Positions 11,063 to 44,187 of a stretch of 64,000 bases of DNA are shown here, piece by piece; the first letter of the stretch is position 1; every line of letters starts with the position of its first letter. This DNA is from a virus (lineage: Duplodnaviria > Heunggongvirae > Uroviricota > Caudoviricetes): the IMG/VR virus record IMGVR_UViG_3300029982_000015; one strand, written 5' to 3'. Below the pieces are notes generated by a model. That model saw only the letters and a list, made by a program, of their open reading frames with translations. It was not told the DNA's origin and searched no databases. The position numbers were made by a program, and so were the translations under genes.

Positions 11063-11452
11063 ATGGGCAAGAAGGCCAAGACGAAGTTCCCCACTAAGGC
11101 GCAGTTGAATGCGCTGAATATCCACAACGGCCACAACCTCGCTGACCTCACCAAAGACAAGCTATTCATAAGCTTCACCCCAGCCAGTACAGGCCGAGGC
11201 GGTCGGTCGGCTCACTTCCGCGTCTCCCACATCGGGTACCAGTCCGACCCCACTGCCCATTTTTTGGATTATGGATGTAAAACATTCACGGTGTGGGGTG
11301 GTAAGGCTGGTCGGGAGAAAGTTTTGGTCGATGTCATCGCATGGACAAACGCAAAGTATGGTGAACGGGAGTGGGTGAAAGACCCCTTCGGCTCCTATCA
11401 GGATGCACAGGTGATTGCCCTTGCTTGGGAGAAAGTGGAGGCGGCAAAGTGA
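11063..11452 (+). CDS. hypothetical protein
   Basis: ATG 11063 (MGKKAKTKF) placed by promoter geometry; the track start at 11057 is GTG. Confidence 0.5.
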   Translation: MGKKAKTKFPTKAQLNALNIHNGHNLADLTKDKLFISFTPASTGRGGRSAHFRVSHIGYQSDPTAHFLDYGCKTFTVWGGKAGREKVLVDVIAWTNAKYGEREWVKDPFGSYQDAQVIALAWEKVEAAK

Positions 11453-12264
11453 TTAAGGCCGAGTTACTAACCGAGACGAATGAACTCCACTTCCAGCGTA
11501 TGTTGTTGTCGGCGACCTATGGCTTTCAAGAGAAGCATAACGGCCATCGGCTGATTATCTGCAAGCAGGATGGGCAACTCCGCATGTTCAATCGTGAAGG
11601 CGATCCCTCCAGCAAGGCTCTCCACCCCCGCATCAAGACTGCCCTTCTATCACACCGGCTCAGCATGTTTGTAATCGACGGTGAATTGGTCGGCGGAACC
11701 TTCTATATCTTTGACGCTCTGGTGCTCGGGGATGAAGCTATCAACAACGACGCATATGAGTATCGCGAAGCTCGGTACCACGCTGAATTCGACAATATCT
11801 CAAGTCAAATCAGTGTAGTCCCGACCGCACGGACGGCGGAAGAGAAGCGGCTCCTGTGGGACGCAGTGCTGGCATCGCGTGGCGAGGGCATCGTCTCCAA
11901 GAACATGACCGTAAAATATACCCAAGGCATGGCGGGGGCTCACTGGAAGCTGAAATTTTTGAAGTCGGCAGAAGCTGTGGTTATAGGCCCTAGTCCAGAG
12001 GGAAAAGACAGCGTTGAGATTGGCATGTGGGACTCAAACGGTAGAATGCACCGCATCTCCGGCCTCTCGCTCCGCAATAAATACCGGGTCGCACCCGGCA
12101 CTGTTTTGGAGGTTCGTTTCCTTTATGCTACGAAAGAACTTCACATCGTTCAGCCGGTACTTGTTCGTGTACGCACCGATAAACGCGCTGCGGACTGTAA
12201 GTTAACCCAACTTGTCCCTTACATCAACAAAAATTGGGTAAAAAGCGAACTATCCCATGTTTAA
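11449..12264 (+). CDS. minimal ATP-dependent DNA ligase
   Basis: Motif I EKHNGHR (KxNGxR), motif III FVIDGELV, motif IV EGIVSK, motif V WKLK; GTG start overlaps the upstream stop (GTGA); ATG 11501 is an alternative. Confidence 0.7.
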   Translation: MIKAELLTETNELHFQRMLLSATYGFQEKHNGHRLIICKQDGQLRMFNREGDPSSKALHPRIKTALLSHRLSMFVIDGELVGGTFYIFDALVLGDEAINNDAYEYREARYHAEFDNISSQISVVPTARTAEEKRLLWDAVLASRGEGIVSKNMTVKYTQGMAGAHWKLKFLKSAEAVVIGPSPEGKDSVEIGMWDSNGRMHRISGLSLRNKYRVAPGTVLEVRFLYATKELHIVQPVLVRVRTDKRAADCKLTQLVPYINKNWVKSELSHV

Positions 12265-13193: not shown

Positions 13194-13415
13194 ATGAAAA
13201 TCGCAATTGGACAAATCAACAACACGGTCGGAGACTTCTACGATAACGTGGAGATGATTAAGAACCAAGCCATCGAAGCCACGGCTCATGGGGCTGTCGC
13301 CATTGTATTTCCGGAATTGGCTGTGTGTGGCTACCCCGTTCGCGACCTTCATTTGGAGGGGTATCCAAATCATCAAACGCACCGACAACTTCAGTATGGA
13401 GTAGAGGAGTGTTGA
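13194..13415 (+). pseudogene. N-terminal fragment of a CN-hydrolase / glutamine-dependent NAD+ synthetase (NadE-like)
   Basis: MKIAIGQINNTVGDFYDNVEMIKNQAIEATAHGAVAIVFPELAVCGYP matches the NadE/nitrilase N-terminus (MKIALAQLNPTVGD...LVVFPELALTGYP) but stops after 73 aa. Confidence 0.45.
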
Positions 13416-14230: not shown

Positions 14231-14424
14231 GTGAGTTCACCAACGAGCGGCTACTCGACCTTGTGCGGTACATGCGTTTCCCCCTGTATGAAGCGGGGGT
14301 CATCACCGATGAAGAGTATGCGGCATTAGTCGCCGACAGCGAAAGTGGGCAACGTGTGGCTCGAATCGAAGAGTGGGACACCTTAAGAAAAAGGCTGGAG
14401 GCACAGCATGAGAAACAACATTGA
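14227..14424 (+). CDS. hypothetical protein
   Basis: ORF with ATGA overlap. Confidence 0.4.
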   Translation: MSEFTNERLLDLVRYMRFPLYEAGVITDEEYAALVADSESGQRVARIEEWDTLRKRLEAQHEKQH

Positions 14425-30967: not shown

Positions 30968-31175
30968 GTCGTGATTATGAATATGAACTCGCACAGATGA
31001 AACAACGAGGGGCATCCCTTCGTCGGTTTCTAGCTGGTGGGAACGCCATCAGCGGCTTGATGCTCATCGCCCTCGCGGCGGTGGCACCCAGCTTTACTTT
31101 GCAGAATCGGCTGGTCTTTGGTTTTCTCGGCCTTTGCTGCCTCCTAATCATGCTCTTCGCTCTTCGGGTGAAATC

Positions 31176-40377: not shown

Positions 40378-40677
40378 ATGGCAAAGTTAAAACTGGAATT
40401 GCAGCGTGGTGGGGTACAGTCTCTTGTGACCCCGAAGGGAACCAAAGTATTGACTGGAGTGCCGCGAGTTGTGGCAACCAAATTTGGTACATACTTTGTG
40501 TTTGCGAAGACAAACGAACATGCGGAGAGCCTCATCAAGGTCGAGGGAACCGGACACCGCGTGTTCGAAGAGTATACGGTTGATGGCGTCACTGTGTATC
40601 GTCAGACCAAGGACACACCCAACGGCCAACTTAAGAAGGGTGAGTGGCATGTTGACGCGGATACTGTAACCTTGTAG
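40378..40677 (+). CDS. small hypothetical protein between the helicase and the dCas12-like gene
   Basis: ATG 40378 after a GGGGAGG SD; 99 aa. Confidence 0.45.
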   Translation: MAKLKLELQRGGVQSLVTPKGTKVLTGVPRVVATKFGTYFVFAKTNEHAESLIKVEGTGHRVFEEYTVDGVTVYRQTKDTPNGQLKKGEWHVDADTVTL

Positions 40678-40742: not shown

Positions 40743-43313
40743 ATGAATTTCTCAGAAGTAAAAGCACACAGTATCGACGGGGTGTTCTACCTGACGATGA
40801 GCACCCACCCCGAACTTGCCAAGAAGGGCCGTCCTTTGGCACTCGTCAAATCTGGAAGTATGACGTTCTCCGACAATCAAGTAGCATTCAAGGGAGAGTC
40901 TTATCCCTTGGGGCTCACTCTCGCTGAGAACACCCCTTTAACCATCATTTTCACCAACCACAACAGCCGAGTGTTCAACATCGAACGCGGTGTGCAAACC
41001 AAGAAGCTTGAGAACGGTGACCTTTTCTTCCAAGGCGAGAACCGCAACCATGGTAACAAGACCAAGGAAGAAATAGCAGCCAAAGGGACCGGCTACCTCA
41101 CCCTCAAGAACCGGCTGTTCTACCATCATCGTGGTGTGGAGACCTCCGGTGCAGTTTTACCCAAGTGGGCCGCAGATAAGAAGACCAACTGGCGCTTGGT
41201 ATGGAATATTCTCGCCTTGTTACTCCAATGGACTTTGCAGAAGAGCGAGGATGTTGGAGACACAACAACAAACTGGACACCACACATCAAAAGTGTTGCC
41301 ATGCTTCTAACCGACGATAGGGAGGTGTCTGCATACCGTCGCACGACGTTGTCAGCCGAATCCACGGCCATCATCGAGCGCATCCGCAAAGTGATTGTGG
41401 ACTCCATGAACGCTCACTATGCTACTCGTGGACGCGAGGCTAAGTTACCTCTCCCGAAAAATCTTCGCGACAACGCCAAATACCCAGCCAACTTTTCTGA
41501 CCTTCGCTACTTCATATACCGCCTCGACAAGTATGAGAAGGAAGAAAAGGTTAAGGTTCTCGTTTGTGGGGTGGCTGAGAGCGACCCGGAGACCCTTCTC
41601 GCTAATTATCTGAAAACAGAACTGGGTAAATTGAAACGCCACAAAGAGCCCCTCAAAGCACTCAAGGCGCTTTTCACCAATATAGAGGAAACCAACTGGG
41701 CCGATGGCATGGGGGAGGTCTGGATGAATGGTGCAAAGCCATGGAGCGGTAACCTCTTCAATTACATCGGCAAGATGCTGGCTGTCCCCCCCGCAGAAAT
41801 GGGTGAAATATCCACTCGCTTTCAAGCTGTGTTGAAACAGCGTGAATCGAAGAATAGTCCTTACGACAAAGGCTGGCCGAAACACATCCGCATTGATGAG
41901 GACACATGGCAGGTCTCCTACGACGTACGTGGAAAGAAAACCCTCCGGGAAGTGCTGGATAACAAGGTTCCGCATATCCAGTTCACCGCCCCGCTGGATT
42001 CAATCAACACTGGAAAAGCATTTCGTCACACCGTAACGGCTGTTGGCGACGACTTTGTGGTCACACCTGAGTTCAAGCCTATGACACCGGGCTCCTGCGC
42101 TGCCAAGCGGTCATTGCACGGCGTTTCACTCACCGATGGCAAGGGCACCGACCCCTTCAAGTTGGCCGTCCTAGTTCACCGTGATGATGTTGACCTGAAC
42201 GCTAAGGTGAAAAAGGTCATTGTGTCCTTCAAGACAGAGAAGCGCAAAGTGGTTAAATACGCCGACCAAAATGGTCGAAACTCTGGTCTTGCGGCACCAG
42301 CGACCAAGCAGGTGCCCCAGTGCTACCTCAACTTCTGCCTTGCAGAAGTCAAGACTAACGAGAAGTACGATACGCGGGGCACCGGGTCGGCAAAGCTCAC
42401 CCTCGGATGGAAGCTGGCGAAAGACGACCAGTTGAAAATCGTTACCGAGTCTCTTCCGACCGGGCAGACAAACGACTACTACTTGCCTCTCGGCGAAGAG
42501 TGGAAGACCGAAGGACTCTTCGCTGAAGGATGTGACAGCACGAAGAAGGGCAACGTTTGGTCGCGCAAGTCGGGGTATACACTGGCATTCCGCACGTTAT
42601 ACGGATGGCCGGGTGAGGAAGCCATTAAAAATGCCCAGAAGGCAGAACTTCAGGCACACTTCCGCACAAATACTTTGACGTACAATTGGCTTAAGACTAC
42701 CCTCTTGTCACTACCGGAGCAGCTTGACCTTCTGCTCAACGCGGCCAAGGATGAGGGGTACAAGCTTATGACTGAGGAGCAGCGGAACATTGTTGACGCG
42801 GCAGGTTGGCGTATGGTTCGCCAGTCTGGCATGGTTCGTTACATCAACGAACTCCGCATTGGTGCCGGGACGCTAACTACAACCTACAACACTAACCCAA
42901 GTCGTCAGAGCGAGAAGTCCAAACCGCTCGGCTCTAACCCCGAACTCCTTCGTCTCTGGCTTCGCTGGCTTGAGTTCAACGACCGCCTTCGCACTGTAGA
43001 GCGTATGGTGCGTGAGAACCTGTTGGGACGCCGTAAAGCTTACTACTATGTTCTCGCACACCGCATCTGCGACCATGCGTCAACCATCTCTTACAAGAAA
43101 TTGAACCTCAAGGACGCTTCAGAGAAAGAGACCCGCGCCAAGAAGAAGGACAAGGGCGACAAAATGGCTTCCGATGCTTCGCAGAAGTACCGCTCGTGGG
43201 CATCACTGGCCGAATTTACAACCATCCTCAAGCACGTCGCATTCAAGCGTGGCGTGACGGTCGAGGAGGTTGTTGAAGCCCTTGTTGACAAAGCTCTGGC
43301 CGCGTCAGCTTAA
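40743..43313 (+). CDS. putative nuclease-dead Cas12/TnpB-derived CRISPR-associated protein (C-terminally truncated RuvC)
   Basis: 856 aa, immediately 5' of the CRISPR array. AKLTLGWKLAKDDQ aligns with TnpB RuvC-I vGIDLGLKTLAtlSDG, with the catalytic D replaced by T. TISYKKLNLKDAS aligns with RuvC-II vIAlEDLNVkGMt, with E-D replaced by K-K. MASDASQKYRSWASLAEFTTILKHVAFKRGVTVEEV aligns with TnpB iSDAGWGEFRRqLEYKAeWYGreVVVV. The protein ends before the TSQ/zinc-finger/RuvC-III segment; no CxxC pairs. Confidence 0.45.
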   Translation: MNFSEVKAHSIDGVFYLTMSTHPELAKKGRPLALVKSGSMTFSDNQVAFKGESYPLGLTLAENTPLTIIFTNHNSRVFNIERGVQTKKLENGDLFFQGENRNHGNKTKEEIAAKGTGYLTLKNRLFYHHRGVETSGAVLPKWAADKKTNWRLVWNILALLLQWTLQKSEDVGDTTTNWTPHIKSVAMLLTDDREVSAYRRTTLSAESTAIIERIRKVIVDSMNAHYATRGREAKLPLPKNLRDNAKYPANFSDLRYFIYRLDKYEKEEKVKVLVCGVAESDPETLLANYLKTELGKLKRHKEPLKALKALFTNIEETNWADGMGEVWMNGAKPWSGNLFNYIGKMLAVPPAEMGEISTRFQAVLKQRESKNSPYDKGWPKHIRIDEDTWQVSYDVRGKKTLREVLDNKVPHIQFTAPLDSINTGKAFRHTVTAVGDDFVVTPEFKPMTPGSCAAKRSLHGVSLTDGKGTDPFKLAVLVHRDDVDLNAKVKKVIVSFKTEKRKVVKYADQNGRNSGLAAPATKQVPQCYLNFCLAEVKTNEKYDTRGTGSAKLTLGWKLAKDDQLKIVTESLPTGQTNDYYLPLGEEWKTEGLFAEGCDSTKKGNVWSRKSGYTLAFRTLYGWPGEEAIKNAQKAELQAHFRTNTLTYNWLKTTLLSLPEQLDLLLNAAKDEGYKLMTEEQRNIVDAAGWRMVRQSGMVRYINELRIGAGTLTTTYNTNPSRQSEKSKPLGSNPELLRLWLRWLEFNDRLRTVERMVRENLLGRRKAYYYVLAHRICDHASTISYKKLNLKDASEKETRAKKKDKGDKMASDASQKYRSWASLAEFTTILKHVAFKRGVTVEEVVEALVDKALAASA

Positions 43314-43320
43314 AAACGAG

Positions 43321-43357
43321 AAACGCGAGAGGATAATCAATACTCTTCTCGCGTTTT
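43321..43357 (+). terminator. hairpin terminator after 40743..43313
   Basis: AAACGCGAGA / TCTCGCGTTT 10-bp stem, 16-nt loop, TTTT. Confidence 0.4.
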
Positions 43358-43364
43358 CCTGAGG

Positions 43365-43391
43365 TTCTAGTTAAGGCAATTGGTGTATAAT
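43365..43391 (+). promoter_or_regulatory. sigma70-like promoter upstream of the CRISPR array
   Basis: TATAAT at 43386-43391 with TG just upstream; candidate -35 TTCTAG; 20 nt before repeat 1. Confidence 0.35.
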
Positions 43392-43411: not shown

Positions 43412-44187
43412 CCTGTAGACTTACTGGATTTGAAGGCTGAATCCAACATAGCCGCCGATGCGTATATAGGTTCCTAACCTGTAGACTTACTGGATTTGAA
43501 GGCTGAATCCAACGGGAGAGCCCGAGGATAAAATCAATGGAGACCTGTAGACTTACTGGATTTGAAGGCTGAATCCAACAGAGATGATTGTTAATGAAAA
43601 GACATCAACCCTGTAGACTTACTGGATTTGAAGGCTGAATCCAACGTAACTTGGGTTGTGCCATAGGTGGCAACACCTGTAGACTTACTGGATTTGAAGG
43701 CTGAATCCAACCCAGCATACTGAGGGCCGTCATTGGTTCTCCCTGTAGACTTACTGGATTTGAAGGCTGAATCCAACTAGATCAGGTATTCGGAGTCTGA
43801 GTAAAGCCCTGTAGACTTACTGGATTTGAAGGCTGAATCCAACAGTCAGCTTTGGCACACCTGTAGATTTACTGGATTTGGAGGCTGAATCCAACGGAGG
43901 GATGTACCGTTGAACGTCGAAACCTGTATACTGGATTTGGAGGCTGAATCCAACATATTGCTGCACCGCTTACTGGATTTGAAGGCTGAATCCAACGAAG
44001 CTTGCCTTGGTACTGTCCCTGTAGACTTTACTGGATTTGAAGGCTAAATCCACCTACGGAACGCAGCCGTGATGTCTTTGGGTTGCCCGTATACCCACTG
44101 GATTTGAAGGCTGAATCCAACCCTGATGGCACTCACGTGTGGATGGCGGAACCTGTAGACTTACTGGATTTGAAGGCTGAATCCAAC
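43412..44187 (+). CRISPR. CRISPR array: 13 repeats, 36-bp consensus, 12 spacers
   Basis: Repeats 1-7 and 13 are perfect; 30-nt spacers at 66-bp period. Repeats 8-12 are decayed or truncated with 15-32-nt spacers. The repeat 3' half forms a 5-bp stem plus AAC before each spacer (type V-like handle). Confidence 0.9.

Follow-up and report, generated by a model that had tools for sequence, protein, structure and literature searches.

A truncated Cas12m-related protein and its CRISPR array in a tailed phage: a candidate binding-only effector in mobile-element conflict

We analyzed a 64,000-nucleotide stretch of DNA (hereafter the window) from a tailed virus of the class Caudoviricetes (IMG/VR record IMGVR_UViG_3300029982_000015), with a focus on the effector gene at positions 40743-43313 and the CRISPR array that follows it. 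The gene encodes a protein of the Cas12/TnpB superfamily that is closest to Cas12m, as judged by profile, profile-profile and fold comparisons. Its RuvC catalytic residues are replaced, and the zinc ribbon and RuvC-III segment are missing. It is reasonably probable that the protein is a binding-only, Cas12m-like effector used in conflicts between mobile elements, in which it would silence competitors without cutting their DNA. A sequence-only reading of the window had proposed a phage-borne, nuclease-dead and C-terminally truncated Cas12/TnpB-like protein at this position. The open reading frame (ORF) that it delimited is exact (plus strand, 856 aa) and corresponds to a conserved gene, and the array of 13 repeats does lie directly downstream. 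The phage origin of the locus is likewise supported by the phage families encoded in the window, which include RIIB-like, RNA ligase-HNH fusion, tRNA nucleotidyltransferase, ATP-dependent protease-like and polymerase proteins.

Searches with the effector protein against Pfam, NCBIfam, PHROGs, PDB sequences and, by tblastn, INPHARED gave no match. PADLOC identified similarity to Cas12u1 (E = 1.3e-5) and Cas12f (E = 5.4e-5) in residues 742-844, covering profile positions 390-487 of 533. Among 5.8 billion clustered proteins we identified one orthologue, P0001 (844 aa, 53% identity), and a homologue search that started from the alignment of relatives returned P0001 only. IMG/VR protein scans with the window protein and with two of the relatives described below (P0003 and P0004) found no relatives.

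A HMMER profile search of 1.84 billion representatives produced 27 hits that fall into three groups. Members of the first group are 690-860 aa long and align collinearly with the window protein along their whole length at ~20% identity. The second is P0004 (860 aa). The third comprises proteins of 450-580 aa that are bona fide Cas12m, since their alignment matches the PDB entries for Cas12m (23vw, E = 3.6e-78) and Cas12m2 (8hhl, E = 4.7e-37). When the two truncated proteins (the window protein and P0001) were compared with this Cas12m alignment, hhalign returned a probability of 99.6% (E = 1.1e-24) and paired residues 461-849 with columns 188-462 of 518 (275/518 columns). The N-terminal 460 residues of the effector cannot be aligned to Cas12m profiles, and the protein has no full-length match to a Cas12m / V-U1 profile, the PADLOC Cas12u1 match being confined to residues 742-844. 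The multiple sequence alignment (MSA) of relatives shows N-terminal, WED, REC and RuvC blocks in common.

We modeled the effector with AlphaFold2 on an alignment of 34 sequences; an earlier version built on two sequences had a predicted local distance difference test (pLDDT) score of 35 and was discarded. All hits in a fold comparison of the retained model are Cas12 proteins. The predicted layout consists of an N-terminal beta domain (residues 1-115), a WED/REC region (116-545) and a RuvC remnant (546-845) that contains a helical insertion (586-732). The protein thus has a RuvC-like RNase H fold that is split by insertions and homologous to that of TnpB and Cas12. The Cas12/TnpB-like identity in the sequence-only reading is borne out by PADLOC, by HMMER relatives with intact motifs and by hhalign. 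The two comparisons that this reading had proposed for the C-terminal region, a profile search for a RuvC/TnpB-like domain (PADLOC, residues 742-844; hhalign, residues 461-849) and an AlphaFold comparison, were both positive. A Cas13 identity, prompted by the 36/30-nt array and by repeats that end in CAAC, was rejected because the protein has a single RxxxxH motif (residue 124), where Cas13 has two in its HEPN domains, and a Cas12 fold.

The catalytic D-E-D triad is absent from the effector. In RuvC-I, the segment 'KLTLGWKL' pairs with 'G(I/L)D(I/L)GWRR' of the relatives and 'IDLGYR' of Cas12m, which places Thr553 at the position of the catalytic Asp. The same position is Lys in P0001 and Val in P0004. 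The Asp-to-Thr replacement claimed from the sequence was therefore reproduced by alignment. In RuvC-II, strand beta4 of the relatives ends in a Glu (LN[IV]E), for which the window protein has a Lys. The predicted Lys substitution stands in both of our alignments, and the register is ambiguous: hhalign against Cas12m gives Lys785, which is the register originally proposed, and MAFFT with the closer relatives gives Lys790. The proposed bridge correspondence also holds, as 'SQKYRSWASLAEFTTILKHVAFKRGVTVEEV' pairs with 'SQ+YRQ(W/F)A..G.F...LK..A.KYGI.V.EV' and Arg817 within it is invariant in 34/34 sequences.

The relatives continue past the 'VEEV' at the end of this block with TSR-CxxCG...CxxCG..DQDxNAA, whereas the window protein ends 11 residues past strand beta5. 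There is no CxxC motif anywhere in the effector and no PF07282 match; the TNB/Nuc zinc ribbon that lies between RuvC-II and RuvC-III in relatives (CxxC...CxxC) is thus missing, as is the RuvC-III motif DQDxNAA. hhalign left the last ~56 columns of the Cas12m profile unmatched. Alignment and hhalign therefore agree with the C-terminal truncation that had been read from the sequence. The mutation of RuvC-I and the absence of RuvC-III together preclude a canonical two-metal site. The truncation is shared with P0001, at 53% identity, and so is not an assembly artefact; the identical window protein was also read on 19 metagenomic contigs. The RuvC core (residues 733-845) is the best-conserved part of the two truncated orthologues (66-76% identity versus 53% overall), which favors a retained structural role over decay.

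P0001 is encoded by a syntenic sister phage (L001-L005) and has the same end point as the window protein. The gene order in this phage is a 1050-aa helicase-methyltransferase, a small ORF, P0001 and an array of ~38 units. P0004 is encoded by L020, a third phage that is more distantly related and repeats the gene order of the window: tRNA nucleotidyltransferase, a 1062-aa helicase-methyltransferase (26% identical to that of the window), a 95-aa ORF (37%) and the effector (23%). P0004 is followed by a terminator hairpin equivalent to that of the window and then by the repeat CCTGTAGTCTTAGTGGATTTGTAGGTTGAA..., which is almost identical to the window repeat. In P0004 the RuvC-I Asp is replaced by Val and the RuvC-III Asp by Tyr, while the zinc ribbon is kept. 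This combination indicates that inactivation preceded truncation in the phage lineage. Synteny of the phages extends beyond the effector cassette to tRNA nucleotidyltransferase and small ORFs.

The 690-860-aa family (P0003-like) includes 32 clusters, one of them from a Terracidiphilus metagenome-assembled genome. These proteins share collinearity with the window protein throughout (~20% identity), including the N-terminal domain and a 'RAY.TH.GV.TD..LP.W' block, and like the window gene they have their own array 3' of the gene and no cas1/cas2 nearby. They differ in retaining the D-E-D triad (with the motifs G(I/L)DIGWRR, Glu and DQDxNAA) and the CxxC...CxxC zinc ribbon, and in being located on bacterial chromosomes or plasmid-like elements rather than in a phage. 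Their motifs indicate that they are probably active nucleases. The arrays of these bacterial relatives have 36-nt repeats with a 3' hairpin and a CAAC end; the hairpin sequences themselves are wholly different between the phages and the bacterial relatives. The neighborhoods of the bacterial relatives contain no homologue of the phage helicase or small ORF, and a helicase near P0003 (contig L011) was rejected as a counterpart because it is not homologous to the phage helicase-methyltransferase. The surroundings of P0003 (L011 590-8008) are plasmid-like or resemble an integrative and conjugative element, with PRTRC_E, Prok_Ub, Prok-E2_D, ThiF, SSB, DnaB and a PIN toxin-antitoxin pair, and a DUF1643 gene overlaps the start of P0003.

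An array adjoins the effector gene in the window, in the sister phages and in the bacterial relatives. The window array begins 99 nt 3' of the effector stop codon and consists of 13 copies of the 36-nt repeat CCTGTAGACTTACTGGATTTGAAGGCTGAATCCAAC with 30-nt spacers. The first seven units have perfect repeats at a regular 66-nt period; in the distal units the spacers are short and the repeats are degenerate or truncated at their 5' end. Conservation centers on the 3' part of the repeat, 25 nt (ACTGGATTTGAAGGCTGAATCCAAC) that consist of an 8-bp hairpin followed by AC and adjoin each spacer directly, so that the hairpin ends 2 nt before the spacer. Across the phages this conserved segment reads ACTGGATTTnnnGGCTGAATCCAAC, and the 5' 11 nt of the repeat vary. 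The core is kept in all three phages, although their effectors are merely 23-53% identical. In 21 hairpin variants, 95% of cells are paired and the changes are mostly wobble-compatible, with one compensatory change; the statistic for hairpin maintenance is modest (17/500 shuffles attain the observed value). By its sequence the repeat has the layout of a type V CRISPR RNA (crRNA), with the handle 5' of the spacer.

Older units (window 43844-44121; L001 13070-14950) often have spacers of 10-25 nt and repeats without the variable 5' 11 nt, and their 25-nt core is intact. Decay thus spares the handle. In L001, at ~13235-13260 and 14262-14285, we also observed internal leader-like copies (..GGTATAATAGAAA(A)CA) 7-8 nt before the 25-nt core. 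These copies suggest either that transcription begins at the crRNA handle from internal promoters or that several arrays have fused.

Spacer 1, the leader-proximal spacer, matches a protospacer at 30/30 positions in L017/L018/L019, which are metagenome contigs without any repeat. The site lies inside a 372-aa ORF (L017:11805-12923, minus strand) with no Pfam, PHROG or phage-database relative. This ORF belongs to a minus-strand gene run that includes a phage-type helicase (phrog_62) and a phrog_3243 protein, and the target element also encodes a tyrosine integrase, a Mom-like protein and a PD-(D/E)XK/RNase H nuclease. The integrase, Mom-like protein, nuclease and helicase indicate that the target is a temperate-phage-like or integrative element. 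Other spacer searches gave no match: spacers 1-4 and 6 against IMG/VR, spacers 2 and 5 against GTDB species genomes, and the whole array against INPHARED in distant mode. Self-targeting was rejected, as no spacer matches the window outside the array, and a sister-phage spacer that matches window 31045-31062 at 17/18 nt does no better than chance given the number of queries. Spacers from the arrays of bacterial relatives had only 14-15-nt chance matches in the phages studied here.

L001 and L002 come from two samples, and their arrays match throughout apart from the leader end, which holds two spacers of its own in one array and a single such spacer in the other. Such leader-end differences are the signature of polarized acquisition.

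The features of the locus are collected in Table 1. The hairpin after the effector stop codon, noted from the sequence, was supported by folding and a shuffle test (14 bp, -19.5 kcal/mol, z = -4.6, 0/200 shuffles as good) and is followed by UUUU. The suggested TATAAT promoter fared less well: the hexamer is present, but a consensus promoter scan did not call it and found no usable -35 element. In agreement with the earlier claim, neither cas1 nor cas2 was found among the ~25 larger ORFs of the window in a non-exhaustive Pfam or PHROGs scan. The 1018-aa helicase-methyltransferase has no relative among INPHARED phages. Three diverged phage lineages share the order helicase-methyltransferase, small ORF, effector, array. 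The effector gene is not flanked by Tn7-like genes or a sigma factor; its neighbors are the helicase-methyltransferase, small ORFs and a DUF262 protein encoded just 3' of the array. Sister phage L001 has a 279-aa GmrSD_N gene in another place and in the opposite orientation.

Table 1. Positions of the effector gene, its RuvC elements, the array and neighboring features in the window.
Feature	Position	Strand	Basis or comment
SF2 (superfamily 2) helicase-SAM (S-adenosylmethionine) methyltransferase fusion, 1018 aa	37317..40373	+	Pfam; ResIII/SNF2-like, methyltransferase C-terminal
99-aa ORF	40378..40677	+	Between the helicase-methyltransferase fusion and the effector gene
Effector gene	40743..43313	+	ATG start, 856 aa
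RuvC-I remnant, residues 546-585, three beta strands	42378..42497	+	MSA, hhalign; modeled strands 548-582
Thr553 codon, position of catalytic Asp	42399-42401	+	MSA, hhalign
RuvC-II remnant 'ISYKKLNLKDA', residues 782-792	43086..43118	+	Two alignments; modeled strand 784-790
Last RuvC elements (helix alpha2, strand beta5), residues 817-845, and 11-residue tail	43191..43310	+	Alignments
Terminator-like hairpin and U run	43320..43357	+	Separates the effector gene from the array leader
TATAAT (-10-like) hexamer, candidate promoter	43386..43391	+	In the array leader, by sequence
CRISPR array, 13 repeats	43412..44187	+	Repeat core kept in sister phages
Spacer 1, leader-proximal	43448..43477	+	30/30 protospacer in L017/L018/L019
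DUF262/GmrSD_N (ParB-like nuclease domain) protein, 191 aa	44857-45432	+	PF03235, E = 2.8e-19

Elsewhere in the window we identified a Ku homologue (PF02735, E = 7.6e-30) and an ATP-dependent DNA ligase (1767-2738 and 11371-12264, plus strand), a pair resembling a non-homologous end-joining system, and an RNA ligase (19318-20358, plus strand; phrog_24030, E = 5e-105) that carries an HNH endonuclease domain at its N terminus. A separate TnpB-like ORF of 402 aa (25692-26900, plus strand) appears complete and matches the PF07282 TNB domain (E = 3.8e-9), PF01385 and phrog_506. Derivation of the effector from this TnpB was rejected, as BLASTP detected no similarity between them.

Cas12m is the type V-M effector, formerly V-U1, with examples including MmCas12m2 (PDB 8HHL) and GoCas12m (8PM4). 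Cas12m proteins interfere by tight binding that depends on a protospacer-adjacent motif (PAM) and blocks transcription or replication without cleavage, and they are enriched on plasmids and prophages (PMC11013384, PMC10442227, PMC11656645). Their pre-crRNA processing is independent of RuvC (PMC11013384, PMC10442227). They use a crRNA-only guide with a hairpin handle, as predicted for the window system, and like it reside at mobile-element loci without adaptation genes (for the window, among the scanned ORFs). Cas12m2 has a TNB zinc finger and a three-motif RuvC (PMC10442227). Cas12m proteins keep both modules, sometimes with a non-canonical H-D-D triad, whereas the window protein has neither TNB nor RuvC-III. 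The window protein is also longer (856 versus ~570-615 aa), has several insertions and, at its N terminus, a beta domain of ~115 aa that Cas12m lacks, and is encoded by a phage rather than by a plasmid or prophage.

The truncation itself has a parallel in TldR proteins, TnpB derivatives with mutated triads and a C-terminal truncation that removes the zinc finger and RuvC sequence while RNA-guided DNA binding is retained; some are prophage-encoded (PMC10705468). The window protein shares the mutated triad and the loss of the zinc finger and last RuvC motif. TldRs differ in being TnpB-sized, in using a single long omega-RNA-like guide beside the gene instead of a 13-unit array, and in regulating a fixed host gene (fliC, oppA) where the window system would address foreign DNA; their origin from TnpB was independent. 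Naturally inactivated type V effectors also include Cas12k of the V-K CRISPR-associated transposons and dCas12f-sigmaE, which act through binding and the recruitment of partners. The tnsB, tnsC and tniQ genes that accompany Cas12k are absent from the window locus. Inactive Cas12 proteins with arrays are already known (Cas12m, Cas12k, Cas12c and several V-U subtypes with altered sites; PMC10691335).

The effector probably belongs to a small phage-specific lineage related to Cas12m that first lost the RuvC catalytic residues and then TNB and the RuvC-III helix. It would have retained WED, REC and the RNase-H-core scaffold, which would hold the crRNA and the R-loop. In the mechanism that we propose, the array would be transcribed from the leader and the transcript cut into crRNAs without involvement of RuvC, as happens in Cas12m; each crRNA would carry the 25-nt hairpin handle and, 3' of it, a spacer of ~30 nt. 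The ribonucleoprotein would then bind matching double-stranded DNA (dsDNA) of competing mobile elements, probably next to a PAM, without cutting it, and the bound complex would block transcription and/or replication of the competitor. The gene matched by spacer 1 would be part of the early or replication module, which includes a helicase, of a phage-like element that carries an integrase. New spacers would probably be inserted in trans by host adaptation machinery. Binding or repression, as suggested by the sequence-only reading, is a reasonable inference that is strengthened by the perfect protospacer in another mobile element.

Several observations weigh against this proposal. The AlphaFold2 model is of medium confidence (pLDDT 70.5; predicted template modeling score, pTM, 0.58). 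A conserved Asp791 lies beside the RuvC-II position, so that from sequence a residual or novel catalytic arrangement is conceivable. A target was identified for only 1/13 window spacers, and that protospacer sits mid-gene (~codon 247 of 372), away from a promoter. Its 5' flank, ..CATGGCTG (..GGCTG; n=1), is unlike the T-/C-rich motif reported for Cas12m. Spacer 1 is antisense to the target ORF, meaning that the crRNA would pair with the mRNA and that RNA targeting is conceivable. Finally, the window array is identical in all samples seen, save for one lost unit; acquisition is thus evidenced for the sister phage only.

An alternative that we consider possible but unlikely is that the inactive effector serves as an RNA-guided recruiter, bringing to its target a partner enzyme such as the helicase-methyltransferase fusion with the 99-aa protein, or the DUF262/GmrSD_N protein. 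Cas12k-TniQ, type IV-A DinG and dCas12f-sigmaE would be analogues. Loss of TNB and RuvC-III would free a surface, and the order of helicase-methyltransferase, small ORF, effector and array is kept in three lineages whose effectors are down to 23% identical; synteny extends well beyond the cassette, however, so this linkage may reflect simple ancestry. No fusion or overlap couples the genes, and in the bacterial relatives neither the helicase nor the small ORF has a homologue beside the effector gene. A DUF262 gene does follow the window array immediately and a GmrSD_N gene is found nearby in L001, but the latter differs in place and orientation. A specific form, in which helicase-methyltransferase, 99-aa protein and effector constitute a three-gene module with the effector as targeting subunit, delivering helicase/methyltransferase activity to crRNA-specified sites, is a long shot. 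If true, it would represent natural RNA-guided modification or remodeling of DNA (or RNA) in virus-virus conflict, with a partner interface in place of the lost TNB/RuvC-III surface.

The effector could instead act in counter-defense, with the inactive protein sequestering the crRNAs of an active host Cas12 or with the phage guides loading a host nuclease. Sequestration of crRNAs has been proposed for a dead Cas9 encoded by a phage (PMC11656645), the nearest nuclease-competent relatives are bacterial or plasmid-borne, and their repeats are of the same design (36 nt, 3' hairpin, CAAC). The hairpin sequences of phage and bacterial repeats are nonetheless completely different, in three lineages the repeat core of the phage varies in step with the effector beside it, which favors a cognate pair, and the phage spacer has a foreign target of its own; we regard a decoy or guide donor as improbable. 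Slightly less credit still goes to an RNA-targeting binder that would pair with the target mRNA and block translation or mark the RNA. The sole known protospacer does lie antisense to L017:11805-12923(-), making the crRNA complementary to the mRNA, but a single observation has a 50% chance of this orientation. The closest families (Cas12m, Cas12f, TnpB and Cas12k) all bind dsDNA, and the known RNA-targeting Cas12g depends on its RuvC site. Least probable is a decaying relic, a truncated remnant gene beside a fossil array without function. This would account for the degenerate distal half of the window array, its lack of turnover between samples and the absence of cas1/cas2 from the scanned ORFs. 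It is contradicted by an open frame that two lineages with 53% identity keep at full length to a common end point, by a RuvC remnant that is the most conserved region, by seven perfect leader-side repeats, by a newest spacer with a perfect target and by sister-phage spacers that differ at the leader end.

The view that such an architecture is undescribed was too strong, as both the truncation of TldR (PMC10705468) and the binding-only immunity of Cas12m (PMC11013384, PMC10442227, PMC11656645) precede it. A limited literature search found no description of an array-associated Cas12 without TNB and RuvC-III, or of the present phage lineage. At 856 aa the protein is not small, which leaves it of modest practical use as a tool. 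If the effector acts by binding alone, the strategy of Cas12m would extend to a phage genome. An array-associated Cas12 can apparently do without the whole TNB/RuvC-III module, an end state so far documented for TldR. The relatives with an intact triad, the phage protein with a mutated triad and a zinc ribbon, and the phage proteins with a mutated triad and a truncation represent successive stages, and this series makes it possible to ask which parts of Cas12 are needed for R-loop formation. Together, the perfect match to a rival integrating element and the turnover at the leader end provide a testable case of nuclease-free CRISPR conflict between viruses.

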